A stretch of DNA of 52,332 nucleotides from Bacilli bacterium (GCA_016296285.1 JAEDJP010000001.1:1-52332), one strand, 5' to 3'. Positions 36,000 to 52,332 are shown, numbered from the stretch's first letter. A program made the numbers and translations. The notes: generated from the letters alone by a model not told the origin.

Positions 36000-36161
36000 T
36001 TTCTTGTCACAACCACACGCGGCCATATCACGCTTCAGAAGATAGCCGAGTCGCTCAAGGTGTCCAAGAGGACGGCTTCAAGGATTGTCATCTCGCTCAA
36101 ATCAAAGGGGGTGCTCAGCAGGAACGGATCGGAAAGATCCGCAAAACGGATACTCCAATGA
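36000..36161 (+). pseudogene. 3' remnant of a gene encoding a C-terminal HTH domain
   Basis: Open frame with no start codon. It encodes ...ITLQKIAESLKVSKRTASRIVISLKSKGVLSRNGSERSAKRILQ*, a typical wHTH C-terminal tail, and is bounded upstream by TAA at 35997. Confidence 0.5.
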
Positions 36162-36424
36162 AGTGGTCGAGAATCAGAACAACAGGAATCCCATCTTCTT
36201 CTAGAATTTCTCCAGCAACCCGTCAGCTACTCAGTTTCAGACCGGCCCGCCGCTCCCATGCGTGCCTTCGATTTTCCCGAAAATTCGTCCGCAATCCGTC
36301 CGCATCAGGCGTTCAATTCGGTTCTAGAAGAATAATCCTAACTCTTAACGGCACTTAAGATTTCCCGATAGAATAATAAGCACTTTCTTCCAAAATGCTC
36401 CATCTCAAACCATCGGGGCATGCT

Positions 36425-36477
36425 GACTTAGGATCTGATGGACTTCCGTGCAGGTTCAAGTCCTGTCGCCCGCACCA
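36425..36477 (+). repeat. 3' fragment of tRNA-Leu (anticodon loop to CCA), att-like direct repeat
   Basis: 52 of 53 positions are identical to 32120-32172. Homology begins exactly at GACTTAGGA in the anticodon loop and ends at CCA. Confidence 0.85.
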
Positions 36478-36487
36478 ATAGAAAGGG

Positions 36488-36526
36488 AAGCCTCCGGCCC
36501 CAAAAGGGAACGGAGGCTTTTATTTT
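36488..36526. terminator. hairpin/terminator after the tRNA-Leu fragment
   Basis: AAGCCTCCG - 14-nt loop - CGGAGGCTT followed by TTATTTT. Confidence 0.6.
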
Positions 36527-36668
36527 CTTCGGCTCGGAACATCTATGGACGTAAACATTAAGCCCTATAAGACAGGAATGGTTACCGTGAAATAGAAGTA
36601 CCCTTTCGGTTACGGGAGATACCCATTTTGAAGATGTCGAAGCTACCGTAGTAGCTGGTATGGAAGTT

Positions 36669-37237
36669 CTACCAGAACTCATCGGTATCAACGAAGGAGT
36701 CATCGGCGAATAAGGCAAGACCTTCTTCGGGAAGATCCTTCTGGGTGAAGGTTGTTTCACGTCTATTGACCTTATTGTAGAAGTAATTGTTGTTATCGGC
36801 ATTGGAGCAGACGTTGACATAGAACTTGGCAAAGAAGTGCTCGGAGCTGGCAATGATTCTGGCGGAACCAACTTCATCACCATAGACATAACCGTTTTCG
36901 ATATGACCGATGGAAGTATTGGTGATGATATAGGTCATCTCTTAGGCAGCGTCAGGATTGGAGAAATGCAACTTGATCTTGTTGTAGCATCCCTTCATGA
37001 CAGGGCAGGCAGTAACTTCCAAAGTACCGTAATCAATCGGTCCGGAAAAAAGATTCCTCTTTGGAGGAAACTTCCTCAGGAGCCTGACTTTCGGAAGCCT
37101 CGGACTGGGTGGATTCAGACTTTTTGGGATGTCTTTCCTTCGCTGCTGATCGGCTTGGAGGTTTCACCGCCCTCCTTACCGCAGCCGGCCAACGCAAATA
37201 AAGCGGTAGAGGCCAATAATCAAAATTCACGTTTCAT
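36669..37237 (-). pseudogene. decayed lipoprotein gene (nonsense codons plus frameshifts)
   Basis: The ATG at 37237 gives MKREF-TGA-LLASTALFALAGCGKEGG, an in-frame TGA at 37220-37222 inside a lipoprotein signal peptide. The Ser/Glu linker (KKSESTQSEASESQAPEEVSSKEES) lies in another frame. A further frame change occurs near a T6 run, and an in-frame TAA lies at 36942-36944 before the last 89-codon ORF (36669-36938). Confidence 0.6.
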
Positions 37238-37251
37238 AAATGTTCTATAAC

Positions 37252-37280
37252 AAAAGAAACCCGGGATTGCTCCCGGGGTT
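37252..37280 (-). terminator. rho-independent terminator ending the locus-B operon (minus strand)
   Basis: On the minus strand: AACCCCGGGA - gcaa - TCCCGGGTT followed by TCTTTTG, 6 nt after the GH43 stop codon. Confidence 0.75.
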
Positions 37281-37285
37281 ATAGG

Positions 37286-38467
37286 TTAGATGAGATTTCC
37301 TTTGACGATATCGCTGATGGCGATGTCGTCGAAGTTGTTGATGTGAAGCTTACATTGATAGACGATGCGCATCTGGTCCATGGATTCACGTCCGTGGAAG
37401 ACATAATGAAGTTCGCCATCTTTCTCGACAACACATCCATGTCCTGTCGAATAGAGTGAGATTTCCGGAATCTGATGGATGATCGGATTCTTACCATATT
37501 TGTGATAGGGACCAAGTGGCCGATCGGCAACGGCTGCACCGATGCCATATAAGGCGTTTTCATAGCTGTTGCAGGAGTAGAAGATCAGATATTTCTTAAC
37601 GCCGTCAATGACATAGGGGATCGTCATGGAGCCTTCGGCCCAACGACGGTTATGCTTTTGGCCATGAGAAAATTCATAGTCGGAGATATGGCCGTTTTCC
37701 CATTCCTGAGGCTCATGGTAATAGGAGATGATCTGGACCCATTTATCCTTACGGATTTCAGGATGTTCAGCATCGTAGGCGACAAAGGAAGGATGAATGG
37801 TCGGCATCATCTTTGCTTCCTTGTCGTACCAGAAGGCAGGATCCAATTCTACGGCGAGAATATTGCTTTCCTCCACGAACTTGTCGAATCTCTGATCCGG
37901 TAAATTGTTCTCGTAGCAACAACGGGAATAGAAGAGATAGAAATGCCCGTCTTCCATCAGCAGATCGGCATCGATCGCAGGAATATAGGTTCCTTTTTTG
38001 GCTTTGCTTAAGTCTATTTCGGAGACTTTGACGGCGAAGGCGTCTTGGCAAAGCGCATCGACATCACGATATTCATAATCAAAGGGATAGTAATCAATCG
38101 GGTGATTGGCAAGGTTGCGGAAGGGGCCTTCAGGCGTCGCGGAAACGGCAACACCGATTTTGGAATTCTCTAAAAAGTCGGGTCTTCCGAAATACTTCGT
38201 CGTCAATTCCGGTTTCACTCTCGCAGAGTAGAAGAGATAGTAATGCTCGTTGTGCGGATTATAGTAGCATTCCGGAGCCCAGAACCAATCCGTTCCCCAG
38301 CACATTTCATCCTCATAATAGGCAAATCCGACCTTCTCCCAATTGCAAAGGTCTTTGGATTTATAGATGATGAAGTGTTTGGTTTCTTCATCACCGGTGG
38401 CATATGCGTAATACGTTCCTGTTTTAGGGTCCTTCATGACAAAAGGATCTGCACCGATGACATTCAT
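37286..38467 (-). CDS. glycoside hydrolase family 43 protein (cytoplasmic)
   Basis: Five-bladed-propeller motifs: GADPFVMKD (general-base Asp), WFWAPECYY, PAIDADLLMEDGHFYLFYS, and WAEGSMTIPY (acid Glu). No signal peptide. Confidence 0.75.
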   Translation of the reverse strand: MNVIGADPFVMKDPKTGTYYAYATGDEETKHFIIYKSKDLCNWEKVGFAYYEDEMCWGTDWFWAPECYYNPHNEHYYLFYSARVKPELTTKYFGRPDFLENSKIGVAVSATPEGPFRNLANHPIDYYPFDYEYRDVDALCQDAFAVKVSEIDLSKAKKGTYIPAIDADLLMEDGHFYLFYSRCCYENNLPDQRFDKFVEESNILAVELDPAFWYDKEAKMMPTIHPSFVAYDAEHPEIRKDKWVQIISYYHEPQEWENGHISDYEFSHGQKHNRRWAEGSMTIPYVIDGVKKYLIFYSCNSYENALYGIGAAVADRPLGPYHKYGKNPIIHQIPEISLYSTGHGCVVEKDGELHYVFHGRESMDQMRIVYQCKLHINNFDDIAISDIVKGNLI

Positions 38468-38509
38468 TGTTTCACCTCGACTTCCTGTTTGAAAATCACT
38501 TTTATTCCT

Positions 38510-40342
38510 TTAGATGAGGTCTGCGACGGAAACGTAAGAGGCATCCTTGTCGATGGCGATGGAAGAACCACCAAGATAGTAGTTGGCGTTGGTCTTCTTG
38601 CTGCCATCGCTCGTAACATCGTTATAGGCGACGACAACCTTCAAATCGCTCACATCCAAGCCCAACTCATCCAAGTTGACTCTACCTTCCATAACCATGC
38701 CCCTATCGTCTTCAGCACCACCGACGACATTGACTTCACCGGTCGTTCTCACATGGTGAGAAACATCGGTGATGGCCTTGGCATAAATCATGTTGCCTTT
38801 CGGGGAGTAGGAGCTTTCCGGGGAACCAGCAGCATAGATTCTCATCAAGTTGGCAGAGGAGAGAAGAACCGGAATGGCTTCCTTGGAACCGCCATTGGTC
38901 AGATAGAGACGCAAATCATCGTTGCCACCCTTCTGGCCCATATCGCCGGCATGCCAGGCTTCGGCATCGGTCCAGATATCGCCATCGGTAATATTGGCGG
39001 CAAAGTACAAATCGCCATTGGCTTCATCGACCTTGAAAGAGATCGTTCCCTTGCCATCGATATCGTTGGTCTTGGCATCTGCCCAATCATCGATCTTGCC
39101 GTCAACCATTGGGAATTCGCTGACATGGACCGGAAGTTTGCCGTCATAGACACCCCAATTGGTCGTAGCCTTGAAGGAAACTTCCTGATCGCCTTCGGTA
39201 AGCTGATAACCACCGTCATAGCTGACCTTGACCGTGCCGGTCGTACCGTTTTCGAACTCCGCTTCCAAATATTCAGGAAGCTTGCTATGAGCCTTGACGG
39301 AGACATTGACCGGATCGGCTTCGATCTTGGTAATCTTTCTGTTATCGTTGAGAGCAATCAATTCGGCCGCGGCTCTATGGCCTAAGACAAAGTTATCCTG
39401 AGCGCCGAAATGCCAAGGCTCGAAGGTGTTGGTATATAAGTCTTCGGTATGGACGAAATGGGTGTTGGCATCTTCGGAAGCAACCTTCTTCTGGATTTTA
39501 CGAAGCTTGTTGCAGTATCGACCGGAATTGGTGACGGCTTCGGTAACGACGACAGGAAGGTCTGCATCACCGACATATTCGCGGAAGTCATGGATGAAAT
39601 CGCCTAAGGCTTTTTCATAGATCTCCATGTTCTTTTCATACTTGGTATCCTGTTCGCCATGGACCCAGATAAGGCCATCGATGACCGCTTCAAAGCCTTC
39701 TTCCTTGACCTGAGCGATGGCTTTGTCGACCAACTGATACAGGTTATTGGTAAGAGGGCCGGTATAATCACCGTTCTTGTCTTCTCTGATCTGGACCGGG
39801 TTGAGGGCATCTTCCATATCAGGATCATCCATCATGGATTTGGAGAACCAGTGATCGGTGAAGGTAGAACCGCAGGCGGTGTATTTGACGATCATGGACT
39901 TACGGGATTTGCCGTTCTTCTGATAACGGGTGGCCATGGTCTCAGCAATGCCGAGTTCCGGACCGAATTCCGATGCACTATCGCCCAAACCAGGTTTGAC
40001 CGGAGAGATGCTCTTGAAAGTAGGATGTTCGGGGATATTACCCAGATTTTCCATTCTCATGCCATCTTCGAGGATATCCACTTCCTCATTGGCAACGTTC
40101 TGTGCTTCGGTCAAATCGCTGACCAATGCCTTGCCACGTCCACCGGACTGACCGGAGAGGACAACGATGTGTACCTTGTCATCCTCGACAGGGGCGACAA
40201 AGGAAGATTCGGAGGAAGTCTGAGATTCCACGCTTTCCTGTTCGGAAGTGGGATGCTCGCTGGTCTTGTCTGCTTCCTTGCCACAGCTAACCAAGCCCAT
40301 CATCATCAAACCCACTGTCAACAAAGTAACACTCTTTTTCAT
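38510..40342 (-). CDS. lipoprotein: SASA/DUF303-type carbohydrate O-acetylesterase domain plus C-terminal CBM9-like module
   Basis: Lipobox G-L-V-S-C and a Ser/Glu linker. SASA-like motifs: VLSGQSGG (GQS), WVHGEQD, and PWHFG. The C-terminal DGKIDDWADAKTNDIDG...DLYFAANITDGD resembles CBM9. Confidence 0.55.
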   Translation of the reverse strand: MKKSVTLLTVGLMMMGLVSCGKEADKTSEHPTSEQESVESQTSSESSFVAPVEDDKVHIVVLSGQSGGRGKALVSDLTEAQNVANEEVDILEDGMRMENLGNIPEHPTFKSISPVKPGLGDSASEFGPELGIAETMATRYQKNGKSRKSMIVKYTACGSTFTDHWFSKSMMDDPDMEDALNPVQIREDKNGDYTGPLTNNLYQLVDKAIAQVKEEGFEAVIDGLIWVHGEQDTKYEKNMEIYEKALGDFIHDFREYVGDADLPVVVTEAVTNSGRYCNKLRKIQKKVASEDANTHFVHTEDLYTNTFEPWHFGAQDNFVLGHRAAAELIALNDNRKITKIEADPVNVSVKAHSKLPEYLEAEFENGTTGTVKVSYDGGYQLTEGDQEVSFKATTNWGVYDGKLPVHVSEFPMVDGKIDDWADAKTNDIDGKGTISFKVDEANGDLYFAANITDGDIWTDAEAWHAGDMGQKGGNDDLRLYLTNGGSKEAIPVLLSSANLMRIYAAGSPESSYSPKGNMIYAKAITDVSHHVRTTGEVNVVGGAEDDRGMVMEGRVNLDELGLDVSDLKVVVAYNDVTSDGSKKTNANYYLGGSSIAIDKDASYVSVADLI

Positions 40343-40443
40343 TGGAATTCCTGCTATGAAATGTTTTTGAAATTGAATCGAATCGATGCCTTTTTTCTCC
40401 TCTTCATTTTAGTGTGAGAAAGCCCTTTCTTTTATCATTAATA

Positions 40444-42702
40444 TTAATGCTGGGAATGGACGGAAAAGGACGTGAAACAAGCCTTGCAGTTTTGTGCATA
40501 TAGACCGACTTTGCCATTCAGATTTCCGTTTTGGAAGACGCCTTTAATCACTTCCACATCATTGACGCAAAGCCGTAATTCATTGTTTTCCTGATAGGCG
40601 GCAAGATGGTATGACTTACCAGGAACAATCGGATATTCTTCGCTCGCAATCGTCTCCAGGAAGTTGTAATCGACTTTCTTGATGCAGATTCTTCCCATAT
40701 CGAATCCGATGAAGAAACCTCGGAAGGAGGTAGCATGTTCGCTGCCATCGGCATCTTCCTTGAACGGAATGCAGTCATCCGTGACGGAGAGAAGGAGGCC
40801 GGCACCACCGGTTTCCTTGGCATGAACAAAGACCATATCCGTCTCAACCTTCACGTCGGTGTAAACCTGTTTGGTCAATAAGGAGACGACTTTCTCTTCA
40901 TGACTGACGAGTCCCGTGTCCTCCAAGGATTCGACATTGCGGCAATGGAACGGATCAAGGTCCGCATGTTCATCCAAACTCACAGAAAGATCCGTTCCGT
41001 TTTGATGTTTCCTATGTTCGAAGGCAGAGAAGGAGAAGTCCCCTTTGAAATGAATGGCATGAACGCCTTTCTTCATCGGCAGTGTCAGGACTTTGGTCCT
41101 GACTTCCTTATCGGTTTGGAAAGAAGGAAGGGTGAATGGATGGAATTCATTTTCGTCAATCCTCATGCCGACTTCGCGATGGAAGGAGGAAGCAGGAATG
41201 GTCAGGATGATATCTTCTTCCTGGTCATCCGGAACGAAGATGTTGTAGATGACATCATCCATCGGGCTCACATGGAGGAAACCGGTTCCCGCTTTTTCGC
41301 AAAGAGAACTCTCTTCTTCATAATCCTTAGCGTAATGGATGGTATCGGCAGGATAGAGACGATCCGAAGAGCCTAAGGCAACCGCGGAGATGGAGGAGGA
41401 GAGAATCTCATGGAAGGTATGATCCTTTCGATATCCGACAGCACCTTCCCCAAGTTCCACCTGTCCTAAACCAAGTTCTCTATGATCAAAGCACAAGGCG
41501 AATCTTCCTTGACGGAATTGGAAGAGGAAACTGTGGACGACATCCTTTCGATACAAGTGATCCAAAGGGTATTCCTGAATGGTCTGGTAGTCTTTGCCGC
41601 ATTGCATCACCAAGGAGATGCTGTCTCCCTTGAAGTTGAGAACCAAGGTCTTTTCAGAGTTACGAGAGAGAATCATCTCACCATAACCGATATTGTTGAA
41701 TTCCACGGAATAGGTATCGCCATGTTCGGCAAGAAGATACATATCGTCCTTGTCTAACATCTGTTCCAAACCATTGGTGGTATGAGCGCGTCCGACAAAG
41801 GGAATGCCATGTCTTCTCATGCCGTTGAGAGCCATTCGATCGTCATCGAAGCTGATGCGGGCAAGGTTGTAGTAACGCGGCCCCTCCTCCATGTTGTGAT
41901 AAACCATGAAGTAGGAATCTAGGTCCGGTCCTAAGACCGTGCAGGAATGACCTAAGCCATAGTAATCATCGTTGGTGGAAACCAAAATGGTAGCCTTTCT
42001 TTCCAAATAGGCAGGGTCAAAGGTATCGCATCGTTCCGTTGCATAATCGACTCTATAATCACGGCTGAGGAAATGTGCTCCGCAATAGGTCAGATAGTAT
42101 CTGCCATAACGCTTGAGCATATACGGTCCTTCATTCCAACCGGAAAGACGACAGGTCAACAAGGACGTCTTGCCGCCTTCTGTTCCTTTCCCTCCTTTGC
42201 AGGAAGTGAAGTCATCGTTGATTTCATAAACGCGGATGGACTCTTCGCCGGAGGTAAAGAGATATTTCTTTCCGTCGCTGTCGATGAAGAAGGAACCATC
42301 GATCCTTCTTTCGAGATTCTCACTGATGCAGGTAAAGGGTCCTTCCGGCTTCTCGGCCCTGAAGAAATAGTGACCGTTACCGTCAGGAGAGGCAACCATA
42401 TAGAAGGATCCGTCGTGATAGATGACTTCCGGAGCATAGGGGCAATCACCGGTTTTCGGATGATTGGGATCTGATCGGTAATCGTAGCAATATCCGACGT
42501 CCGTCACTTTGTTGCTGCAGGGTTCAAAGTGAAGCATGTCATCGGAGACATAACAGGAGATACGGCTATCCGGCGTGGTAAAGTAAAGGTAGTATTTGCC
42601 ATTGAAACGATAGAGGAAGGGATCGGGTGCTTCCAAATCAAAAGGCATTTTCATGCCATTGTCATAAAGGGTCAGTAAACCATCTTTCTTTGTCAATTTC
42701 AT
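40444..42702 (-). CDS. GH43 glycoside hydrolase with a large C-terminal beta-sandwich (LamG/CBM-like) extension, cytoplasmic
   Basis: GH43 motifs: EAPDPFLYRFNGKYYLYF, CPYAPEVIYHDG, RIDGSFFIDSDGKKYLF, and GWNEGPYMLKRYG. About 450 further residues end in a concanavalin-like segment. No signal peptide. Confidence 0.75.
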   Translation of the reverse strand: MKLTKKDGLLTLYDNGMKMPFDLEAPDPFLYRFNGKYYLYFTTPDSRISCYVSDDMLHFEPCSNKVTDVGYCYDYRSDPNHPKTGDCPYAPEVIYHDGSFYMVASPDGNGHYFFRAEKPEGPFTCISENLERRIDGSFFIDSDGKKYLFTSGEESIRVYEINDDFTSCKGGKGTEGGKTSLLTCRLSGWNEGPYMLKRYGRYYLTYCGAHFLSRDYRVDYATERCDTFDPAYLERKATILVSTNDDYYGLGHSCTVLGPDLDSYFMVYHNMEEGPRYYNLARISFDDDRMALNGMRRHGIPFVGRAHTTNGLEQMLDKDDMYLLAEHGDTYSVEFNNIGYGEMILSRNSEKTLVLNFKGDSISLVMQCGKDYQTIQEYPLDHLYRKDVVHSFLFQFRQGRFALCFDHRELGLGQVELGEGAVGYRKDHTFHEILSSSISAVALGSSDRLYPADTIHYAKDYEEESSLCEKAGTGFLHVSPMDDVIYNIFVPDDQEEDIILTIPASSFHREVGMRIDENEFHPFTLPSFQTDKEVRTKVLTLPMKKGVHAIHFKGDFSFSAFEHRKHQNGTDLSVSLDEHADLDPFHCRNVESLEDTGLVSHEEKVVSLLTKQVYTDVKVETDMVFVHAKETGGAGLLLSVTDDCIPFKEDADGSEHATSFRGFFIGFDMGRICIKKVDYNFLETIASEEYPIVPGKSYHLAAYQENNELRLCVNDVEVIKGVFQNGNLNGKVGLYAQNCKACFTSFSVHSQH

Positions 42703-42738
42703 GAGAATGCCTCCATTTTGCCTTGCAACAATTCCTAA

Positions 42739-43899
42739 TTAGAGGAATCTAGGGCCCTTTTGGGGCTCATCCATATGCGGATCATAGGAAGGCTTCTTCG
42801 TATTTACATAGGGGAATCCCTTGTCGTCCCAAAGAATCTTATCCATCATTAAGTGACGGGTTGCAAAATTGTCCTTGCGGGTATAGGCGTGATAGTAGAT
42901 CCAATAATCACCCGCATCATCCTTGATGATGGAGTTGTGACCAGGACCATAGACATCGCTGTCATCGAGAGGACCTCCCCAAACAACGACGTTACCATAG
43001 GTCGTGCCACTACGAGACATGGTGAGCTTCATGCCTTTGCTATCGATGAAAGGACCGTTGACGCTGTTGGAGATGCCAGCCATGACGCGGTAAGTGGAAT
43101 CGGTGCCGGCACAACAGGTACCGGTGGAACCGAAAAAGACATACTTGCCATTGTGCTCGAGGACATAGCTACCTTCGTACTGGGAACCATCCCAGTCAGT
43201 AGGAGCGCCTGCCACAAGAATCTTATTTTCCTTCCAATAGTCGATGTCGTCGCCCTTAAGGCCGATGCCATCATCATTGAGCTGAACCTGATAGAGACCC
43301 TGGAAAGAACCGAATGTCATCCAAACTTCACCATCGGAAGTCTGAATGACCTGAGGGTCAATGGCGTTTTCAACATCGATTTCCTTATAGGAGAAGAGTT
43401 TGCCTTGATCGACATAGGGACCGCCGATGTTGTCGGCGATACCATAACCGATACCGACGCAATCTCCCCAGCCGGAAAGGGAATAGTAGTAAATCCACTT
43501 GTTACCGATCTTGACGACATCCGGAGCCCACATATAGATCTGACTCGGATTGATGGCCATGCCAGGTTCTTTGTGCCAGGTCGGGAAGTTGATGATTTCA
43601 CCGCCAACCTGAGTCCAGGTGCAGCCGTCATCACTCTTCAAAGTGATTCGATTGGTGGCAAAGCACCAGAGTTCACCGGATTCGGGGTCTCTCACGACCG
43701 TTGGGTCAGCAACTTCACCGCTGAAGGGAGAACCGGTAGTCGTCATTGCCATGAGCGGGTTGGAGAACTCGCCATAGTAATATCCCGGTTCATCGGAAGA
43801 TTCTTCGGAAGCATTGGGTGTTTGATTCGAAGGAGGAGTCGTGTTACCGCAGGAAATCAACAAGGCGACGAACGCGAATCCTAATAATGATTTCTTCAT
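42739..43899 (-). CDS. GH43 glycoside hydrolase lipoprotein (extracellular)
   Basis: Start at MKKSLLGFAFVALLISCGN (lipobox L-I-S-C), with AGGAGC 5 nt upstream. GH43 motifs: VADPTVVRD, MWAPDVVKIG, IDPQVIQTSDGEVW, and YEGSYVLEHNG. The track start at 43944 overlaps the upstream gene. Confidence 0.8.
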   Translation of the reverse strand: MKKSLLGFAFVALLISCGNTTPPSNQTPNASEESSDEPGYYYGEFSNPLMAMTTTGSPFSGEVADPTVVRDPESGELWCFATNRITLKSDDGCTWTQVGGEIINFPTWHKEPGMAINPSQIYMWAPDVVKIGNKWIYYYSLSGWGDCVGIGYGIADNIGGPYVDQGKLFSYKEIDVENAIDPQVIQTSDGEVWMTFGSFQGLYQVQLNDDGIGLKGDDIDYWKENKILVAGAPTDWDGSQYEGSYVLEHNGKYVFFGSTGTCCAGTDSTYRVMAGISNSVNGPFIDSKGMKLTMSRSGTTYGNVVVWGGPLDDSDVYGPGHNSIIKDDAGDYWIYYHAYTRKDNFATRHLMMDKILWDDKGFPYVNTKKPSYDPHMDEPQKGPRFL

Positions 43900-43909
43900 G
43901 AACGGCTCC

Positions 43910-46186
43910 TTACTTGGCCAAAGACCAAGAGGCGATGGTATCACCGGAGTTTACGTCAAAGGCTAGAACCTTATCCAACTCACAACTAAGCTCAATATCT
44001 TCGTGAGCCTTGACCAACGTTCCGGTGGAGATCTTGGCAATCATATCAACGTTGTTGTAATTGGCATGGACGAGAAGTTCGCTGCCAAGCAATTCAACGA
44101 CATCACTGTTGACCGTGAAACCACTGGACTTCTTATCGGAATTGAATTCACGGGCAAGGTGGATGTGCTCCGGACGGATGCCGATGCGGACATCGTGTTT
44201 GCCCTGCAAGGCAGCCTCATACTTTCTTTCTAGTTCGGTCAAGACCAACCAAAGGTTGTTGGTGAGAACGACATTGGAATCCTTGACGTGGATGGAAGAC
44301 TTATAGCCTTTGACGGCAGCTTTGGCCTTGCCATGTCTCTTGGTGTAGAAGAGAACCGTTTCCTTTTCGGACTTCTTGCCCTTGGAGAAGGCCGTGGTGT
44401 TGTGAAGGATGGACAGTTCCTTGGTCGTGATATCCATGATGTTGAGAAGGAGCGGTTTGGCAGCCTTGAGTCTTTCTTCCAAGGAACGTTCTTTCTGTCC
44501 ATCCGTAGCAGGAGCAAAGCAGGCAACCAAGGCATCGCGATCCTTGTCATCGATGGTTTCGATGACCGCTTTGAGTTCTTCGACCTTGGCGTTGATTTGT
44601 TCTTCCATCATGGCCTTGATTTCGCCATGGATTTCATCCAAAGACTTGGAGCCTTCCTCCTTGACGAGAGCATGAACCTTCTTTTCGCCCTCCGTAAGCG
44701 GAACGAGCTTTTCTTCGCCTTGGCCTTTGCTAAGAGCCGCCCGGAGACGATCGGAATAGTGGAGGAGATTTCTTTCCTCGGCCAGGAGGCGAAGAATCTC
44801 GTCGTGGAGGAACAAGCCATGCATCTTCTTGACCGGATTCTTGGCTAAGAAGCCTCGGGTCTCTTCCAATTTCTGGTTGTAGAAGGCATCGTGAGTCGTC
44901 TTGAATTCTGCCCCCATATCCATGACGAAACCATCGTCTAAGGTCAACTTGCCGTCTTCATAAGTGCCTTCGAAGATATTCATGGCAGGAGAGCCAATGA
45001 AGGTAGCGACGAAGATGTTGTTCGGACGGGAGTAGATGACTTCCGGTTCCCCAATCTGCTGGCACCAGCCCTTGGACATGACGGCAATACGGGTTGCCAT
45101 GGTCATCGCTTCGGTCTGGTCGTGCGTGACGTAAATGGTGGTCGCCCCGATTCGCTCGTGCAATCGGACGATTTCGGAACGCATCTGAACTCTCAACTTG
45201 GCGTCGAGGTTGGACAAAGGCTCATCCATTAAGAAGACCTTGGCGTTTCTGACAATGGCTCTTCCTAAGGCGACACGCTGCATCTGACCACCGGAGAGTT
45301 CTTTCGGGCGTCTGTCGAGGTAAGGGCCAAGGTCCAAAATCTTGGCCGCTTCGAAGACCTTCTGACGGATCTCTTCCTTGGTGAGTTTGACCTTCTGATG
45401 AAGGGGTTTTTCGCCCTGATAGACAACGCCATCTTTCTTGATGGTGAAGCCCTTGGATTCATAGTTCTGCTTTTCCGCAGCAATCATGCTGTCCAAAGTA
45501 GCGTCGATCTCCTCTTTCTTGGAATCGAACAATGTCTTGAATTCAAGCTGATACTGGGCAAGATTATCCGAATCACCGAAAGCTTTTCTGGCTAAGGCAA
45601 GCAAATCTTTGTATGACAAGATGAGCTTGGCAGTGATTTCCTGGATCTTGAGCTTGGTGGAAACATAGACGGCCAAAGAAGCGTAATTGAGTTTCTTGTC
45701 CAAGGATTCGATCATGCCTTCCAGCAACCGCTCAGGCTGTTCCTTGACCGCATCGAATTCCATTTTGGCCTGCATGGAGAGGACTTTGACGATCTTATCG
45801 TACTTGCGGGCTTTGAGCGGGAACGCGATGTTATCGTAGACCGTCATCTGCGGATACAAAGCGTAGGACTGGAAAACCATGGAAATATCACGGTCCTTGG
45901 GAGGAATGTAGTTGGAGAGGACTTTATCGATGTGGAGATAACCGGAGGAAATATCTTCCAAACCGGCGATCATTCTAAGGGTCGTGGACTTGCCGCAGCC
46001 AGAAGGACCGACCAAGACGATGAACTCATGCTGCTTGATATCGATGTTGAAATCGTAGACGGCCTGAATGCCGTTGGGATAAATCTTATTGACGTCTTTG
46101 AGACAGACGAAGGATTGAATGGATTCGTTGCGGATAATACCGCCATTCTTCTTCAGTTCTTCTTTGAGATTCACATTTTCTTCCAT
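43910..46186 (-). CDS. MsmX/MalK/UgpC-type sugar ABC transporter ATPase, greatly enlarged (758 aa)
   Basis: Walker [11 protein letters not shown]-loop [10 protein letters not shown], signature LSGGQMQR, Walker [14 protein letters not shown]-loop YVTHDQ, and MalK C-domain ends ([10 protein letters not shown] ... IGIRPEHIHL). It has K/E-rich insertions of about 140 aa and about 240 aa. AGGAGG lies upstream of the start. Confidence 0.9.
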   Translation of the reverse strand: MEENVNLKEELKKNGGIIRNESIQSFVCLKDVNKIYPNGIQAVYDFNIDIKQHEFIVLVGPSGCGKSTTLRMIAGLEDISSGYLHIDKVLSNYIPPKDRDISMVFQSYALYPQMTVYDNIAFPLKARKYDKIVKVLSMQAKMEFDAVKEQPERLLEGMIESLDKKLNYASLAVYVSTKLKIQEITAKLILSYKDLLALARKAFGDSDNLAQYQLEFKTLFDSKKEEIDATLDSMIAAEKQNYESKGFTIKKDGVVYQGEKPLHQKVKLTKEEIRQKVFEAAKILDLGPYLDRRPKELSGGQMQRVALGRAIVRNAKVFLMDEPLSNLDAKLRVQMRSEIVRLHERIGATTIYVTHDQTEAMTMATRIAVMSKGWCQQIGEPEVIYSRPNNIFVATFIGSPAMNIFEGTYEDGKLTLDDGFVMDMGAEFKTTHDAFYNQKLEETRGFLAKNPVKKMHGLFLHDEILRLLAEERNLLHYSDRLRAALSKGQGEEKLVPLTEGEKKVHALVKEEGSKSLDEIHGEIKAMMEEQINAKVEELKAVIETIDDKDRDALVACFAPATDGQKERSLEERLKAAKPLLLNIMDITTKELSILHNTTAFSKGKKSEKETVLFYTKRHGKAKAAVKGYKSSIHVKDSNVVLTNNLWLVLTELERKYEAALQGKHDVRIGIRPEHIHLAREFNSDKKSSGFTVNSDVVELLGSELLVHANYNNVDMIAKISTGTLVKAHEDIELSCELDKVLAFDVNSGDTIASWSLAK

Positions 46187-46235
46187 TTTGGAAAGCCTCC
46201 TGATTGATGTTTTTCAGCAAAGAATTGCTGAGGAA

Positions 46236-47186
46236 TCATCTCTTGATACCGGCAGAAGCCATACCTTCGATGATCTTGTTGGAAGCGAGGATGTAAGCGA
46301 CAAGGACCGGAGCTAAGCAGATGACACCACCGGCAAGAGCGGTACCGATCAAGTCCGATGTTCTGGAGTTGTTGATGACGTAAGCCATGCCGACCTGCAG
46401 AGTCCAAAGCTTGTTGTCTTTGACGCCGAATAACATCTGCGGCCAGACCAAGTCGTTCCATCCGCCCATGAAGCCGAATAAGCCCTGAACGAAGAGAACG
46501 GTCTTACCTAACGGAAGGACGATGCGGAAGAAGATCTCAAGGTTGGAGTAGCCATCCATTTTGGCAGATTCCACCAAGTCTTTCGGAATCGACATGAAGA
46601 AGGTCTTGATGAGGTACATGCCATAGACGCCACCTAAGCCAGGGAGAATGAGTGCCAATAGTGACTTATTAAGACCCCAGGAGAAGATGTTCATCTGGTT
46701 ACCGACAGCGGTAGCCGTTCCAGGAATAACCATGGAAGCGACCAAGATACCGAATAAGACCTTGGATCCACGGACCGGCATGAAGGTGAAGCAGTAAGCG
46801 GCAAGAGAGGCGACAAGGAGGTAAAGAAGGGTGCCGCCGATGGCAGAGATGCAGGAGTTCATGAACCAATAGCCCATGTGGTATTCCTGAGTCGAGTTAT
46901 GGGAGCCCATCATATCTTCCGGATATTGCTGCAAGAGAAGAATCTTATAGTTTTCGAGGGTATAACCGGAATGCGGATAGAAGATCTCCTTCGGATAGTT
47001 CATGTTGTCCAAATGGCCTCTTAAGGAGCCCAAGAACATGATGAAGAAGGGGAGAACCCAGATGATGCAGAAGATCGTGAGGAAGATGAAGGTGATGATT
47101 TTGCCATACTGAATCTTGGTGTGACGATTCTGGTTTGCCTTACGGTAACCGACATAACGTTCAAGCGTTAATTGATTCTTGCCCAT
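46236..47186 (-). CDS. carbohydrate ABC transporter permease (MalG-like)
   Basis: 316-aa polytopic protein with the EAA loop ESAKMDGYSNLEIFFRIVLP. Confidence 0.85.
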   Translation of the reverse strand: MGKNQLTLERYVGYRKANQNRHTKIQYGKIITFIFLTIFCIIWVLPFFIMFLGSLRGHLDNMNYPKEIFYPHSGYTLENYKILLLQQYPEDMMGSHNSTQEYHMGYWFMNSCISAIGGTLLYLLVASLAAYCFTFMPVRGSKVLFGILVASMVIPGTATAVGNQMNIFSWGLNKSLLALILPGLGGVYGMYLIKTFFMSIPKDLVESAKMDGYSNLEIFFRIVLPLGKTVLFVQGLFGFMGGWNDLVWPQMLFGVKDNKLWTLQVGMAYVINNSRTSDLIGTALAGGVICLAPVLVAYILASNKIIEGMASAGIKR

Positions 47187-48259
47187 TTTGCGTATGCCTC
47201 CGAATTTCTGTTACCGGGTTTTCGATCTCTAGTAGCCCACATCTGGATACCGGAGATGATACCGACAAGGATTGCATAGACGATACTGGCAGCAGCGCCT
47301 AAGCCGTACAAGGTATCCTTGAAGGTAGGCCTGTTGGCGACAATATCCTGAATGAAGTACATGATGGTAGAAGTCTTGCCGCCACCAGGCATGGAAGAGA
47401 GGGCCGGAATGACCGGGCCGCCATTGGACAAAACGTAGTTCTGACCATACAAGCCTAAGTAACCGATGATGGTGGTGAACAAACATAAGACGAGCTGTCC
47501 TTTGATACCAGGGATGGTGACAGCCATGACTCTCTTCATCGGAGAGGCGCCATCGATATCGCTGGCTTCATATAAGGACTTGGGAATGTTCTGGAGACCG
47601 GCGGAGAGAATGATGAAGTTTCCACCCCAACCACCCCAGAAGCACATGAGGAAGATCGGAATCCAAGCCAGGGCGACATCGCCGTTGAAATTTCCGATTG
47701 TGAATTTGAACCAAGAGTCTACGAACCATTTGATGTCCGTACCGAGTATTTCGTTGAGCAGACCGTGTTGAGACCGATCCAAGAAGAGCATGGAGAAGAT
47801 CGTGCCGGCAGCGGTAAGCGGAACGATGGACGGCATGTAAATCAAGGCGCGGAAGATCTTATATCCCGGCGGCTTGATGTTAACTAAAATGGCTAATCCA
47901 AGAGGAACCAAAACGGCAAGAGGGACCATGATGAGAGCGAAGATAAAAGAGTGCATGAAAGATCGCCAAAATGCGGCACTGGCATTGGTTGCCGCTTTGG
48001 AAAGCTTGTCACCAACGCTCTGCGGGGCAAAGATGAACTTATACCACTGAGCGCCATTGTAGGAGGCAGTACCCGGAGAGGAGAACTTGAAGTTCATGAA
48101 GGAAATCCGAACGCCGTAAATCAAAGGTACGATGAAGAAAAGGATAAAACTAAGAATAAACGGCGCTAAAAAAAGCAGCGCCGTTCCGTATCTTTTGAAT
48201 TCGGTTTTTGTCCTGGAGCTCCGGAGTGCATATTTTTCCAAGGTATTCATTTTATCCAT
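47168..48259 (-). CDS. carbohydrate ABC transporter permease (MalF-like)
   Basis: Polytopic protein with the EAA loop EASDIDGASPMKRVMAVTIP. The ATG at 48259 has AAGGAG 9 nt upstream. The track TTG at 48265 is 2 codons longer. The gene overlaps the downstream permease by 19 nt. Confidence 0.85.
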   Translation of the reverse strand: MDKMNTLEKYALRSSRTKTEFKRYGTALLFLAPFILSFILFFIVPLIYGVRISFMNFKFSSPGTASYNGAQWYKFIFAPQSVGDKLSKAATNASAAFWRSFMHSFIFALIMVPLAVLVPLGLAILVNIKPPGYKIFRALIYMPSIVPLTAAGTIFSMLFLDRSQHGLLNEILGTDIKWFVDSWFKFTIGNFNGDVALAWIPIFLMCFWGGWGGNFIILSAGLQNIPKSLYEASDIDGASPMKRVMAVTIPGIKGQLVLCLFTTIIGYLGLYGQNYVLSNGGPVIPALSSMPGGGKTSTIMYFIQDIVANRPTFKDTLYGLGAAASIVYAILVGIISGIQMWATRDRKPGNRNSEAYAKWARIN

Positions 48260-48306
48260 CGGCAAACACTCCTTTTGTTAAGAATCAAACGTAAACCCAA
48301 GTCCGA

Positions 48307-49941
48307 TTAATCGAAGATGTGAGCCATATCGATGGCTTCCTGGGCAGACTGAGCGGTCTCAGCAATGATCCGGAGAGCACGTTCCTTGCTGCAGCCTTCG
48401 GAAGACTTCAAAGCTTCGTGAGTGGCGAAGACGGCAGTAGAGAGAGCGTTGAAGATCAAGGTTTCGTCCCTAAGGCTTTCCATAGCCATGATGTCAGCGG
48501 GATCGCCTAAAGCCTTAAGGGTGACGTTCTTTTCGCAATATCTCTTATATTCTTCGGATTCATAGACATTCTTCCAAGCCGGGATATGGCCGGAATTGTT
48601 CCACTCGGCGAGGTTGTATTCGCCAGTGCTCGCGTCCTTGCCCTGAACGAACCAGTTGGTGAAGGAGAGAATGGCGGCGACCTTCTGCATGGAATCAACG
48701 TGTCTCGTGATGGAGACGGCGTGACCGTTACCATACCACTTTCTTCGGGTGGCTTCCGGAGCATCGTCCAAAGACCACCAACCATCCGCGTGAGCAGCGG
48801 CGAACGGCTTGGAGATGACCGGATCAGCGGCATCTTCGGCAGAGACGTTCAACTCCGCGTTGGCAGCAGTGAGTTCCGGTAAGTTCCAAGCCAAGGAATA
48901 CTGAGAGGAAGCCCACCACGGACCTTCATTGAACATGACGCAGGAACCATTGCCGAAACCTTCGGTGTTGGTACCGCACTTATCGCCCATCAAACCGTTG
49001 TTGTATCTCTCGACCTGATCGGTGACATAGGTCCTAAAACCTTCGTTGTCCTGGAAGGTAACCTTGATGTCGCCGTTTTCATCCTTGACGGCCATGGAAC
49101 CGCCGTTGGCGTATAAGGAAGAAAGGCCGTCCGGATCGGTAGACTGCATGAATTCAGGAACGAAGGTAGAAACATCGGCCGGTTTCCAGGAGTGGTCTTC
49201 CGCCTTGTTGATGTTACGGACCATAAGAGTGCCGGCTTTGGCCTTTTCAAGAAGTTTTTCAAGCAAGGTCTGATATTCGGCTCTGGAGTTCGGGATGAAA
49301 CGGGTATTGTCATCGAAGCCGAGTCCATTCTTTTTGATGATATCCTGACGGAAGTAGGTCAAGAAGCCATGAGCATCCATCGGGATGGCGAACTGATGGC
49401 CAGCGTACTGGGAGGCTCTGTTGATGTTGTCATAAGCCTGGGAGAAGTCCATGCTGACACCGGTAGGATCACCTAAGAGCTTATCGATCGGATAGAGCAT
49501 ACCCTGGTCGGCATACTGAGCAGTCTTTTCGTTATGCATGACAAGGAAGTCCGGCATGCCTTCCTTCTCGTTCTGCCAAGTCGTATCCAAGTTACCGTAG
49601 AAGTCATAGTGACCGACATAGGTAACATCGATGTGAATCTGGCCTAAGAATTCATCATTGAACTTCTGGATGAGTTTGACGTAGGTCTGCTTATCGGGGT
49701 CACCGATAACGCACCAAGCCTTCAAATTGATTTGTTCATTGAATTCGGGGGCGCCGTTTTCGTCCTTGACGACATCGTCAGCCAAAGTGGAGATATCAAG
49801 AATCGGATCGGAATCATCAACGATCTGAGTGCCGGAATTACCACCGGAAGCGTCTTCGTTACCGCCACCGCAGCTTACTAACGAAAGCAAAGCGGTGAAG
49901 ACAAGGCTGGATCGAATGATCAGCTTTTTTCTAGTTAACAT
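48307..49941 (-). CDS. extracellular solute-binding lipoprotein of the locus-B ABC transporter
   Basis: Lipobox S-L-V-S-C-GGGN. A 544-aa family-1-like SBP positioned upstream of the permeases. GGGAGG lies upstream of the start. Confidence 0.8.
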   Translation of the reverse strand: MLTRKKLIIRSSLVFTALLSLVSCGGGNEDASGGNSGTQIVDDSDPILDISTLADDVVKDENGAPEFNEQINLKAWCVIGDPDKQTYVKLIQKFNDEFLGQIHIDVTYVGHYDFYGNLDTTWQNEKEGMPDFLVMHNEKTAQYADQGMLYPIDKLLGDPTGVSMDFSQAYDNINRASQYAGHQFAIPMDAHGFLTYFRQDIIKKNGLGFDDNTRFIPNSRAEYQTLLEKLLEKAKAGTLMVRNINKAEDHSWKPADVSTFVPEFMQSTDPDGLSSLYANGGSMAVKDENGDIKVTFQDNEGFRTYVTDQVERYNNGLMGDKCGTNTEGFGNGSCVMFNEGPWWASSQYSLAWNLPELTAANAELNVSAEDAADPVISKPFAAAHADGWWSLDDAPEATRRKWYGNGHAVSITRHVDSMQKVAAILSFTNWFVQGKDASTGEYNLAEWNNSGHIPAWKNVYESEEYKRYCEKNVTLKALGDPADIMAMESLRDETLIFNALSTAVFATHEALKSSEGCSKERALRIIAETAQSAQEAIDMAHIFD

Positions 49942-49969
49942 AAATAAAGTTTCCTCCCTTGCAATACGG

Positions 49970-49985
49970 TTGTAAGTGCTTACAA
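49970..49985. promoter_or_regulatory. 16-bp perfect palindrome, cre/LacI-type operator candidate
   Basis: TTGTAAG-TG-CTTACAA. It matches the cre consensus TGTAAGCGCTTACA except that the central CG is TG. It lies 29 nt upstream of the SBP start codon. Confidence 0.5.
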
Positions 49986-50052
49986 ATAAAATATCTAAGT
50001 TACTTTGTAGATGGAATCATTAAAATTAATGCCTTCCCATTGCGGATAATGG

Positions 50053-50124
50053 AAAAAGGGGCTGTTTATTGGTTGATTAACGTGTCCTTGACACGGGGTC
50101 CACATTATTCAACAGCCCCTTTTT
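50053..50124 (-). terminator. nested inverted repeat between the RDD gene and the SBP gene (terminator/attenuator candidate)
   Basis: A perfect 14-bp inverted repeat, AAAAAGGGGCTGTT (50053-50066) / AACAGCCCCTTTTT (50111-50124), encloses a 44-nt loop. The loop contains a second perfect hairpin, CGTGTC-ctt-GACACG (50081-50095). The outer arm starts 1 nt after the RDD stop codon, and T-runs are present on both strands. Confidence 0.5.
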
Positions 50125-50125
50125 G

Positions 50126-51388
50126 TTACTTTTTGGACTGCTCCGTATCCGGGATGAGACCAATCGATTTTTCATCCATCACCTTTGTTTTAAAAGACAT
50201 TTCAAGCAAGGTCTGCGCTTGAGCGGTAAATAGGGTGGAAATGGAGTTGATGACAGTCAGGATGAATGCGCCGATCAAGATGACGGCAAGGGAGACGTTT
50301 CCGATAAAGGGAAGCATCATTCCATCGAACACCCCATTGAAAGGAGGCATCATGTAGGCAACCGTGATTCCGGCAAGATAGGGGATGAACAGAAGGAGAG
50401 AATGGACGAAGGTAAGATACCATTTTGGCTCTTCGTCTTCGGTGGTGATGACGCCAAGTCCGAGGATGAGCTTACCGAGAGTTCTTTCATTGCGGAAGAG
50501 GAACTTCGGAAGAAGATTCAGAAATAGATAGGAGAGGAAAAAGGAAAGAATCAAGGCGATGTTAAGACATTTGGCTTGAGCCCCGATAGCCTCACGATAC
50601 GCAAGATAATGGGTGGAGTAGTAGGGTTCGTTCTGGATCAGGGAGTTTTCGGCATCGGTCAGCATCGTGGAATAGGCGTTGTAGAAATTGTTGAAGTAAG
50701 CCTTGCCGGTTTCATAGATAGCGTTCATCTCTTCGGCCGTGTTATCGGTCATATAGCAGAAGAGTGCTCTAGAAACATCGGTATGAAGGGCAGGGAGCTC
50801 GGTGGGATGACCGTTTTCGTCCATCAAAACCGCATCGAAGCGGAACATACCCGCGGGGAAGGAAGACTGGTAGAGAGAATTGACATAAGCGAGGGGCGTC
50901 GAGGTAAAACTGAGAATGGGAGTGCCGGAAACTTCGGCTTCCTGAGGAACGTAGACGGTGTAGAAGTGAGCGATCGAGTCGTTTTCCGGAGAAGCCTTTC
51001 CATATCTTGTCGTTTCACTGCCGTCTTCGATGACAAAGTCAGGATACTGGGCGTTACCGAACTTCTCATAGGACCATAGGATGGCTCTGTTGATGTTTTC
51101 GATAACGATGATTTCATCGGACTTTCTGGTGGTTTTCTCTTCATCGACGAAGGAAACCAATCCGGAAGCTTCCGCATAATGGTTGTAATAGACAATCTCC
51201 TCTTCCACTTTGGCCGTTGCCTGCTGATAGGAGGCAGTCCCCCTGGCTATCGGAGCAGCCCCAAGGAAGAGAAGACTCGCACCAACTAAGACAATGGAAA
51301 AATCGATGAAGAAAGACGCAAAACGCTTCCCCGGCTTTACCGGGAAAGCGTTGCTGAGATCATAGGTATGTTCTTTGAATAATCCCAT
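50126..51388 (-). CDS. RDD-family polytopic membrane protein with a large loop (paralog of 7554-8933)
   Basis: KRFASFFIDFSIVLV ... RNERTLGKLILGLGVIT RDD-type pattern, with a loop of about 250 aa after TM1. Colinear similarity to 7554-8933: AHFYTVYVP versus AYFYVTYAS, LPALHTDVSRALFCYM versus LPALSMAFAHRLYRYL, and a conserved TM2 region. Confidence 0.6.
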   Translation of the reverse strand: MGLFKEHTYDLSNAFPVKPGKRFASFFIDFSIVLVGASLLFLGAAPIARGTASYQQATAKVEEEIVYYNHYAEASGLVSFVDEEKTTRKSDEIIVIENINRAILWSYEKFGNAQYPDFVIEDGSETTRYGKASPENDSIAHFYTVYVPQEAEVSGTPILSFTSTPLAYVNSLYQSSFPAGMFRFDAVLMDENGHPTELPALHTDVSRALFCYMTDNTAEEMNAIYETGKAYFNNFYNAYSTMLTDAENSLIQNEPYYSTHYLAYREAIGAQAKCLNIALILSFFLSYLFLNLLPKFLFRNERTLGKLILGLGVITTEDEEPKWYLTFVHSLLLFIPYLAGITVAYMMPPFNGVFDGMMLPFIGNVSLAVILIGAFILTVINSISTLFTAQAQTLLEMSFKTKVMDEKSIGLIPDTEQSKK

Positions 51389-51414
51389 TGAATAGCGTTC
51401 GTGTTTTTGTGGTT

Positions 51415-52332
51415 TTAGGCCGCGTCCTCAGTCCAGGTGGAGATGTAGACAGGTTCCGTGATGGCGGCGATTTCGGCATCAATAGCAGCAGCATCGGTAT
51501 TGACCTTGTAGGCGGAGAAGGTGACATCGGAGTTGAATTCGAAGAAACCGACCTGAGAAGGGACAGCCGTGTAATGATCACCATCGAGGACACCAAAGAG
51601 GTCTTCAAGGGTCGTCATGGAAGCAGCATACTGGCCATTGACGAAGAAGTGGAAGTCGAAGCCCTTACGAATCATCTTAAGGGTGATGGAATCTTCAATC
51701 TGAATGGCAGGATCAACATTGTAGAGAGCATCCTGATGTCTGGCAGTGGTATCTGGGACACCGGGGTTCCAGGCCCAATTGGCGCCGTTTTGAACTTCGC
51801 AGACACCAATCTTATCCCATTCGAGACTTTCGTGGCAGTTTTCAATGTTCAAGAAGTAATAGAGACTGTTGGACGGAGAATCCGGAGTGTGCTCAGCGGT
51901 GGAAGCGAACATACCGATCTTCGGCCAGATTTCGTGAGAAAGGGTGGAATGATAGGTCATGGTCGTTTCGACAGAGAACTCAACGGCATCAACGCCCTTG
52001 ATGAATAAATTAGCAGTCAAGGAACCAGAGGTTCTGACATAGTAATCTTCATTTTCAGGAAGTTCCTTGGTGAAGTCATCCTGAGAAGAGATGCCGGAAA
52101 GAGTGTGATCGAAGAAGGTATCCTTGACGGTGACGTGGAAGGAGCAGCTCTTGGTGGAGTCAACCTTGGAAGTAACGGTGACGGTAGCGCTGCCAACACC
52201 GACAGCCTTCATGGTCTTGTTGATAATTTGGACGACTTCCGGATGATCGGAATCATACGTGCACTGCTTATCCTTGGTCGTCAAGGAACCATTGCCTTCG
52301 ATCGTGTAGTAGTTCTGAAGCAACTGAACATC
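51415..52332 (-). CDS. 5'-truncated CDS: Big_2 Ig-like domain plus concanavalin/LamG-like domain protein
   Basis: The frame is open to the right window edge; the track M at 52323 is an internal TTG. Big_2-like segment: KAVGVGSATVTVTSKVDSTKSCSFHVTV. Lectin-like C-terminal part: KGFDFHFFVNGQYAASM, SQVGFFEFNSDVTFSAYKV. Confidence 0.5.
   Translation of the reverse strand, partial: DVQLLQNYYTIEGNGSLTTKDKQCTYDSDHPEVVQIINKTMKAVGVGSATVTVTSKVDSTKSCSFHVTVKDTFFDHTLSGISSQDDFTKELPENEDYYVRTSGSLTANLFIKGVDAVEFSVETTMTYHSTLSHEIWPKIGMFASTAEHTPDSPSNSLYYFLNIENCHESLEWDKIGVCEVQNGANWAWNPGVPDTTARHQDALYNVDPAIQIEDSITLKMIRKGFDFHFFVNGQYAASMTTLEDLFGVLDGDHYTAVPSQVGFFEFNSDVTFSAYKVNTDAAAIDAEIAAITEPVYISTWTEDAA

Follow-up and report, generated by a model that had tools for sequence, protein, structure and literature searches.

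Probable foreign ancestry of a GH43/ABC sugar-uptake locus beside tRNA-Leu repeats in a contig of an uncultured gut Bacilli bacterium

How did a roughly 16-kb sugar-uptake locus come to lie beside an array of tRNA-Leu repeats in contig JAEDJP010000001.1 of a Bacilli bacterium (assembly GCA_016296285.1), and does it share the ancestry of the DNA to its left? In this study, we analyzed the entire contig (52,332 nt, hereafter the window), whose host is an uncultured, wall-less gut bacterium. Its right-hand block (36527–52332), here termed locus B, comprises ten genes on the minus strand and the remains of a lipoprotein gene, and the tRNA-Leu repeats lie between it and a left-hand block that includes housekeeping genes and another sugar locus, locus A (Table 1). 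A reading made from the DNA alone (the sequence-only reading) had proposed that the right block was horizontally acquired or differently descended, a proposal backed by its codon usage, its absence in conspecific strains and its identity to DNA in bovine-gut runs. Our analyses indicate that locus B has foreign ancestry, and we put at about 0.72 the probability that it was truly acquired horizontally, with the 3' end of tRNA-Leu as the anchor for recombination or integration. The source was most likely a ruminant-gut relative whose DNA was imported beside the tRNA gene.

The composition of the contig changes to the right of the tRNA-Leu repeats. The baseline for this comparison was the 36 kb of the same contig to their left, including housekeeping genes (deaminase, EcfA1/A2/T, TruA and RarA), together with relatives. 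The lower G+C that had been estimated by hand was borne out in 2-kb windows (0.514–0.591 at 1–29 kb vs 0.470–0.502 at 36–52 kb), and ten of ten open reading frames (ORFs) between 37286 and 52332 are on the minus strand, as the sequence-only reading had it. Pooled G+C and G+C at third codon positions (GC3) were 0.549 and 0.674 for core genes, 0.551 and 0.732 for locus A, and 0.489 and 0.598 for locus B, with the middle genes having a pooled GC3 of 0.650. Two checks that had been proposed gave the expected outcome: GC3 differed between the genes on the left and those of locus B (Mann-Whitney p = 0.0003), and strand-symmetric tetranucleotide profiles changed between the 33–36 kb and 36–39 kb segments. 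Locus B is therefore atypical in composition, whether set against the contig's left-hand 36 kb or against the nearest relative.

The difference in codon usage is more than a shift in G+C. The share of AGA among Arg codons is 0.35 in locus B vs 0.04–0.09 elsewhere (CGC, 0.13 vs 0.5), that of GGT among Gly codons is 0.39 vs 0.10, and GCG accounts for 10% vs 31–39% of Ala codons, whereas the share of CAG among Gln codons is 0.82 vs ~0.4, which is opposite to the G+C trend. Codon choice in the core genes and locus A is correlated at r = 0.97, whereas locus B is correlated with either at r = 0.77–0.79, and the summed chi-square over synonymous codons is 865 (41 degrees of freedom) for locus B vs 69 for core against locus A. 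None of 5000 permutations of gene labels reached the observed codon distance, no other run of 10 consecutive genes had as great a distance as the locus-B block, and leave-one-out log-likelihood ratios were positive in each of the 24 genes located before 36 kb and negative in all ten locus-B genes, with the switch in codon type located between 35968 and 37286. TAA is the stop codon of eight of nine locus-B genes vs 10 of 24 genes elsewhere (p = 0.02). The difference in codon usage is far beyond chance.

The contrast had first been drawn from a 33-residue peptide that is identical in the ATPases of the two loci. The contrasting codons stand, although some details required correction. The peptide is encoded at 6642–6740 and 45179–45277, slightly off the positions originally given. 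In the locus A copy, Leu is CTT or CTC and every Arg is CGC, but five times rather than four; in the locus B copy, Arg is AGA three times plus CGT, which we counted twice, and Leu is TTA twice and TTG twice, with one CTC that had been overlooked.

Relatives of the two blocks also differ. The best match to EcfT was from the metagenome-assembled genome (MAG) SUG2074 (95%), followed by Candidatus Enteromonas MAGs at 76–78%, and SUG2074 is collinear with the window across 1–9274 at 85% nucleotide identity. Candidatus Enteromonas corresponds to GTDB genus UBA733 in family CAG-826, order RFN20, with one type genome of 1.2 Mb and 57% G+C (PMC8035907). The left block is considered native because synteny between core genes and the beginning of locus A is kept across SUG2074 and Candidatus Enteromonas genomes. 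When codon signatures were compared with those of forty loci from relatives, the core genes and locus A together fitted SUG2074 best (r = 0.97), and locus B fitted best four contigs (L007–L010; r = 0.92–0.93) that have a G+C of 0.47–0.49 and carry rpsL-rpsG-fusA-tuf. The elongation factor G of one of these, L007, is 99% identical to that of the cattle-rumen MAG RUG150. No close orthologues of locus B were found among 185,579 species-representative genomes, in which the GH43 (glycoside hydrolase family 43) protein encoded at 40444–42702 had matches of ≤35% and the solute-binding protein of ≤53% identity. The representative genomes with matches to locus-B proteins were MAGs carrying the labels Anaeroplasmataceae, Onthovivens, Erysipelotrichaceae and Eubacteriales, and no genome retrieved with EcfT was among them.

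Public metagenome runs provided evidence at the level of populations. These were represented by Logan contigs built at k = 31, and the source sample, X1, had word shares with the window of 0.90–0.99. Three pig-gut runs (X27, X33 and X35) contain segment 1–5300 and locus A at shares of 0.29–0.38 (~97% identity), and their contigs cover 24001–36467 at ~94–98%, including rarA, both islets and all the tRNA-Leu pieces. These contigs end at 36467, inside the last tRNA-Leu piece, and depth is zero from 36.7 kb. Over 36932–52332, nothing was found in these runs or in a fourth pig run, X23, at ≥80% identity, conserved ABC (ATP-binding cassette) ATPase motifs excepted. Because there was no match even at that threshold, the pig conspecifics appear to have neither locus B nor a diverged orthologue of it, and the block is thereby variable between strains, being absent from four pig runs that share the left side at ~97%. 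Contigs of 2.0–2.5 kb in X27 and X33, at the strain's own depth, continue past the tRNA 3' end with sequence that does not resemble the window and that is the native right flank of those pig strains. Three different arrangements were seen to the right of tRNA-Leu among the runs, and the tRNA region is a hypervariable hotspot among conspecifics.

Runs from bovine and other guts (X2, X3 and X4) have DNA matching 37279–52332 at 95–97% identity, the differences in X2 being 258/6697, 56/1413, 141/4530 and 97/2225 nt. The homologue of the left block in these runs is 84.5–90% identical (148/953, 483/4580, 143/1229, 193/1897, 73/560 and 194/1865 differences), and the core segment 668–5300 is below the 88% threshold in X2. 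The identities in X2, 96–97% for locus B vs 84.5–90% for the left block and <88% for the core, point to horizontal transfer. A contig of X3 has an intact tRNA-Leu (32083–32172, 0 differences) linked to 37279 across ~220 nt, so that in the donor-type background this tRNA gene is directly followed by the cassette. In a further run, the Logan contig L006 matches 48436–36864 at 93% identity. Horizontal acquisition fits these results because locus B has a ruminant-type codon signature, is missing in conspecifics and has a closer ancestor with ruminant-gut DNA.

The boundary between the two blocks could be placed within a few tens of nucleotides. The block had been described as adjoining the tRNA-Leu repeats, and the piece that it adjoins, the third of the array, is indeed identical at 52 of 53 positions to the intact gene (32120–32172). 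The single difference is at position 36437, which is G in the third piece and A at the matching site of the intact gene, and the pig-run contig from X27 agrees with the window there. Pig-run contigs diverge from the window after 36478, and the sequence from 36478 on is missing in the pig runs. As the pig contig matches G36437 and diverges after 36478, the switch in ancestry must lie within at most ~41 nt that are common to both backgrounds. The inverted repeat just beyond the piece is unlike the terminators behind the first and second tRNA-Leu copies, which belong to repeat family D1, and similarity to bovine-run contigs begins at 37279.

The block begins, as had been claimed, with a disrupted lipoprotein pseudogene, in which three-frame translation revealed in-frame stops and frameshifts. 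This pseudogene, with its signal-peptide TGA, is also present in the relative L006 (93% identical), where it has further lesions specific to that copy and gives way to an IS256-type transposase fragment at the position equivalent to ~36864. The shared TGA and separate lesions indicate that the pseudogene is part of the foreign block and was decaying before the copies diverged. Reading TGA as Trp (translation table 4) opened frame 0 of the pseudogene but gave low-complexity junk, and was rejected; TGA is a stop codon in both blocks.

In terms of mechanism, the acquired DNA would begin at ~36478 and span no less than 15.9 kb, up to where the contig ends. The recipient would be an RFN20/CAG-826 'Candidatus Enteromonas'-like bacterium with conspecifics in pig guts, and the donor was most likely a related, lower-GC ruminant-gut lineage in which ~220 nt separate the cassette from an identical tRNA-Leu(UAG) upstream; putative donor-type copies are 93–97% identical to locus B. 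The tRNA-Leu 3' end probably served as the recombination anchor. We favour a scenario in which donor DNA would have replaced the original downstream flank through recombination, either homologous or homology-facilitated, and a second crossover would lie beyond 52332, because there is no integrase beside the tRNA piece and the cassette looks like an ordinary chromosomal flank in the donor-type strains. Alternatively, a larger island may have entered by site-specific integration into the still-intact attachment (att) core of the third tRNA copy. Searches for DNA past 52332 found the exact RDD protein only on a 2974-nt Logan contig, identical to 49359–52332 and belonging to SRR12268556, which is probably the source run, and a 92% relative of it on a 2.7-kb contig; a scan of Joint Genome Institute (JGI) metagenomes found nothing, and the L006 contig ends inside the range of the window.

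Several observations weigh against a real acquisition. No recombinase, integrase or transposase gene was found in the 52-kb window (Pfam scans of the ORFs at 36.4–52.3 kb and of the islets), and no distal repeat is seen, the contig ending at 52332. Forty nucleotides is also a short anchor for homologous recombination. The source sample is the only one in which the two sides of the junction occur together (share 0.90; others ≤0.20), and a search of metagenome contigs with a 24-nt junction pattern returned no match as an independent copy of the join. The Logan contigs of the source sample leave 36272–36424 and 36478–36497 uncovered, with a depth of 4.1–4.5 beside the join, and because of these gaps the physical link is provided by the original assembly alone. 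Lastly, the source sample includes a minor bovine-type variant with X2 alleles at a depth of 2.2 of 8.9 (42675–42728, between two GH43 genes), and its contig indicates a second locus-B haplotype in that sample.

These observations bear on the rival explanation that has to be weighed first, namely that the contig is an assembly chimera in which a pig-type Enteromonas-like genome (1–36477) has been fused to a lower-GC organism (36478–52332) via their common tRNA-Leu 3' sequence, with no transfer having occurred. We regard this as improbable, although not negligibly so. Besides the confinement of both sides to a single public run, the gaps and low depth at the join (in a contig of low coverage, ~7x) and the low-depth donor-type variants in the source sample, it would account for the switch lying exactly within sequence conserved in both backgrounds and for the lack of any amelioration of locus B towards the codon usage of the host. 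Joins of this kind do occur, for example in the scaffold L095 of another assembly, where 751 nt of the locus are fused to unrelated DNA. However, word depth in the source sample is alike on the two sides (~7.7 for twelve left and middle contigs vs ~7.1 for eight right contigs), and the source has no second, 88–90% identical copy of locus A, unlike X2, X3 and X4, where the depths of such copies match that of locus B. In addition, the sequence common to both sides at the join is only ~41 nt long, probably shorter than the k-mer length at which common metagenome assemblers finish, and the junction is a tidy one of pseudogene, terminator and tRNA piece. For these reasons, acquisition is preferred over an artefact of assembly.

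A second rival explanation makes locus B the ancestral occupant of this site within the genus, lost or replaced in the sampled pig strains, so that the window would retain the older state without any gain. Bovine-type strains also have the cassette just downstream of tRNA-Leu, the logic of tandem tRNA islands makes the DNA to the right of the outermost tRNA fragment the original flank, and the order of the cassette is old, being kept at 45–70% amino-acid identity across several families. Nevertheless, this is very unlikely, as vertical descent would have produced similar divergence on both sides, whereas locus B has 96–97% identity to copies in runs whose left block is at 85–90%; these figures point to locus B grouping with the donor-type copies well inside the divergence of the core genes. 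Its codon usage is likewise off that of the host core (r = 0.77–0.79, compared with 0.97 between core and locus A), four pig-type runs are entirely without it, and the nearest genomes retrieved with a core gene gave no match. That the block is native DNA, with odd codons resulting from expression level or local mutational heterogeneity, is scarcely credible, since, although the G+C difference is modest (~6 points) and CGT, GGT, GCT, GAA and AAG are also preferred in tuf/fusA/rpsL/rpsG of L007 (r = 0.89), AGA, TTA and TTG increase too, G+C at first codon positions (GC1) and the strand-symmetric tetranucleotide profile shift as well, the ten genes, adjacent pseudogene and intergenic DNA all change at one point, and the block is absent in conspecifics.

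The acquisition proposed here has similarities to several known systems. Like tRNA-associated genomic islands, such as the pathogenicity and metabolic islands of Enterobacteria, locus B adjoins a direct repeat of a tRNA 3' end, has atypical composition, strain-variable presence and adaptive metabolic cargo, and the same tRNA-Leu already bears two earlier tandem islets. Islands that target tRNA genes usually carry an integrase beside the tRNA. Locus B differs in that there is no integrase in its part of the window and only the proximal repeat (36425–36477) is seen, and in that the donor-type cassette resembles an ordinary neighbour of an intact tRNA-Leu rather than an excisable element. At core-flanked integration hotspots, accessory genes are exchanged via homologous recombination in conserved flanks; the site studied here is similarly hypervariable between strains, with exchange bounded by conserved sequence and no mobility genes, but its anchor is only ~40 nt of tRNA and one flank is seen. 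The third comparison is with the polysaccharide utilization loci of Gram-positive bacteria, in which a CUT1-type ABC importer is combined with glycoside hydrolases and which move between gut bacteria. In locus B the same combination recurs: genes for GH43 enzymes and an acetylesterase lie with those of an importer made up of a MalK/MsmK-type ATPase, two permeases and a binding protein, and all of them would have been transferred as one block; the locus is distinct as a lineage-specific version with an RDD membrane protein and a twofold enlarged ATPase.

The predicted genes of locus B are in keeping with that comparison. Pfam and NCBIfam assignments place the binding protein, the two BPD_transp_1 permeases and the MalK/MsmK-type ATPase beside carbohydrate-active enzymes, as in other CUT1-type importer loci, and locus B is, as judged from its annotation, a complete, functional-looking oligosaccharide utilization cassette. 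Its substrates are likely fragments of arabinan or arabinoxylan, based on the GH43, AbnA-like and SASA esterase matches. The first GH43 protein (37286..38467) has a nearest protein, P0001, that is 93% identical, with the next ones at ≤58%, and the best matches of the second (40444..42702) in representative genomes are only 31–35% identical. The third GH43 protein, a lipoprotein, has AbnA-type NCBIfam matches below the cut-off, and the translation of the acetylesterase lipoprotein holds a lipobox, ...LVSCG. The best species-representative genomes for the solute-binding lipoprotein have proteins 45–53% identical to it, and none of these is a genome retrieved with the core gene. The RDD protein is a lineage-typical partner of the importer, its nearest protein being 92% identical and the next ≤47%, and the Big_2-like protein is a member of the conserved cassette in distant relatives. 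The order Big_2-RDD-binding protein-permease-permease-enlarged ATPase-GH43(s)/SASA is kept, at 45–70% amino-acid identity, in distant MAGs (L176, L178–L186, L002 and L004) with a G+C of 28–49% and labels of Anaeroplasmataceae, Candidatus Onthovivens, Erysipelotrichaceae and 'Eubacteriales'. The conserved order marks the cassette as an old, patchily distributed unit of wall-less gut Bacilli.

Table 1. Features of the 52,332-nt window, from left to right.
Feature	Position	Strand	Basis or remarks
Housekeeping genes	left end of window		deaminase, ecfA1-ecfA2-ecfT, truA, PHP protein
Sugar locus A	5.8–28.7 kb		enlarged MalK-type ATPase, RDD protein, AraC regulator, two permeases, probable binding protein, Big_2/beta-helix lipoproteins, GH127-like and rhamnosidase-like enzymes
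Middle region	after locus A		tRNA-Ile, -Val, -Thr, HxlR regulator, rarA
Intact tRNA-Leu(UAG)	32090–32172		
Two ~2-kb islets	3' of intact tRNA-Leu		each with AAA_14/DUF4143 ATPase
Third tRNA-Leu(UAG)-derived piece	36425..36477	+	3' 53 nt of gene; left edge of putative foreign block
Ancestry switch (crossover or join)	36438..36478		pig-type to bovine-type
Terminator-like inverted repeat	36490..36527	+	GCCTCCG...CGGAGGC then TTTTATTTT; just 3' of tRNA piece; read from sequence
Lipoprotein pseudogene	36530..37250	-	signal peptide MKREF(TGA)LLASTALFALAGCGK; Ser/Glu linker in different frame; body with more stops
Terminator-like hairpin and T-run	37260..37277	-	8 nt past stop codon of last locus-B gene
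GH43 glycoside hydrolase, cytoplasmic, 393 aa	37286..38467	-	Pfam PF04616, E = 1.5e-26
Lipoprotein with SASA-type carbohydrate acetylesterase domain, 610 aa	38510..40342	-	Pfam PF03629, E = 3.7e-21
GH43 with long C-terminal extension, 752 aa	40444..42702	-	Pfam PF04616, E = 4e-36
GH43 lipoprotein, endo-1,5-alpha-L-arabinanase-like, 401 aa	42739..43944	-	Pfam PF04616, E = 4e-39
Enlarged MalK/MsmK-type ABC ATPase, 758 aa	43910..46186	-	Pfam ABC_tran and OB_MalK
Two ABC permeases	46236..48265 (46236–47186, 47168–48265)	-	Pfam BPD_transp_1
Solute-binding lipoprotein, 544 aa	48307..49941	-	weak Pfam SBP_bac_1 match
RDD-family membrane protein, 420 aa	50126..51388	-	Pfam PF06271
Big_2-like surface protein, cut by contig end	51415..52332	-	weak Pfam Big_2 match

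Loci A and B have a common architecture but are distant paralogues, with identities of 22% for the RDD proteins, 22–31% for the permeases and 45–68% for the ATPases, and their binding proteins had no match to each other. We therefore rejected an origin of locus B as a recent duplicate of locus A. In both blocks, C outnumbers G on the coding strand; GC skew is negative at 1–27 kb, where genes are on the plus strand, and positive at 45–52 kb, where they are on the minus strand, its sign flipping at ~28 kb and tracking gene orientation.

The region between the loci had its own variability. Beyond the intact gene there are two more tRNA-Leu-derived pieces, which accompany the islets. In X27 and X33, there is a local peak of divergence at 29193–30307 (the HxlR gene plus an AT-rich gap behind it), where identity to the window is only ~89% (123–124/1115 differences) compared with ~95–98% in the flanks, and in another run, X40, the left block is present and 29.3–36.5 kb (HxlR, rarA and both islets) is missing. 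Contigs of X2 and X40 have short-sided joints (26–41 nt) from 26480/26485 to 28924/28958 that skip the alpha-L-rhamnosidase gene (26547–28739), and several runs have short-sided joints (23–42 nt) from tRNA-Thr to tRNA-Leu. The AAA_14/DUF4143 gene of the second islet (34591–36007) has a homologue, 91% identical in amino acids and 86% in nucleotides, in a wholly different genomic setting, beside rpsL-rpsG-fusA-tuf in a RUG150-type rumen organism (L007–L014); the homologue was seen at that locus in at least 24 contigs from many samples, and the gene itself seems to be mobile. The exact islet-2 protein had no database record, and a 98%-identical partial homologue of it is labelled 'Candidatus Enteromonas sp.'

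The ENA scaffold L095 deserves separate mention. Its segment 5257–6007 matches 37982–37232 of the window over 751 nt, covering the 3' portion of the first GH43 gene in frame with 94% identity, while the remainder is a GC-rich contig with lytB, cmk, a sigma-54 activator and efp; a product of 605 residues was called. Either the scaffold is chimeric or an unrelated bacterium has a recombinant GH43 gene.

Import of a sugar cassette beside a tRNA gene is an ordinary kind of event that is here unusually well documented. If the contig were a chimera after all, it would serve as a warning that a 52-kb MAG contig can change organism at a tRNA fragment with its depth unchanged. If the join is real, it represents a clean, datable case of recent gene flow, with 3–4% divergence from the donor-type copies and no amelioration, into a recipient from a barely studied, uncultured gut group with tiny genomes. 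A whole glycan-utilization capacity would then have been gained in one step, linking pig- and ruminant-associated lineages, and the tRNA-Ile/Val/Thr...Leu region would be a strain-variable hotspot in the species. More speculatively, and we advance this only as a tentative idea that may well prove wrong, RFN20 gut Bacilli, which are wall-less and genome-reduced, might swap whole sugar-uptake cassettes between host-specific lineages, such as from ruminant to pig, without mobile machinery, via the ~40 nt of the tRNA-Leu 3' end, and the tRNA cluster might be a standing, recombinase-free hotspot that sets which plant glycans a strain can use.

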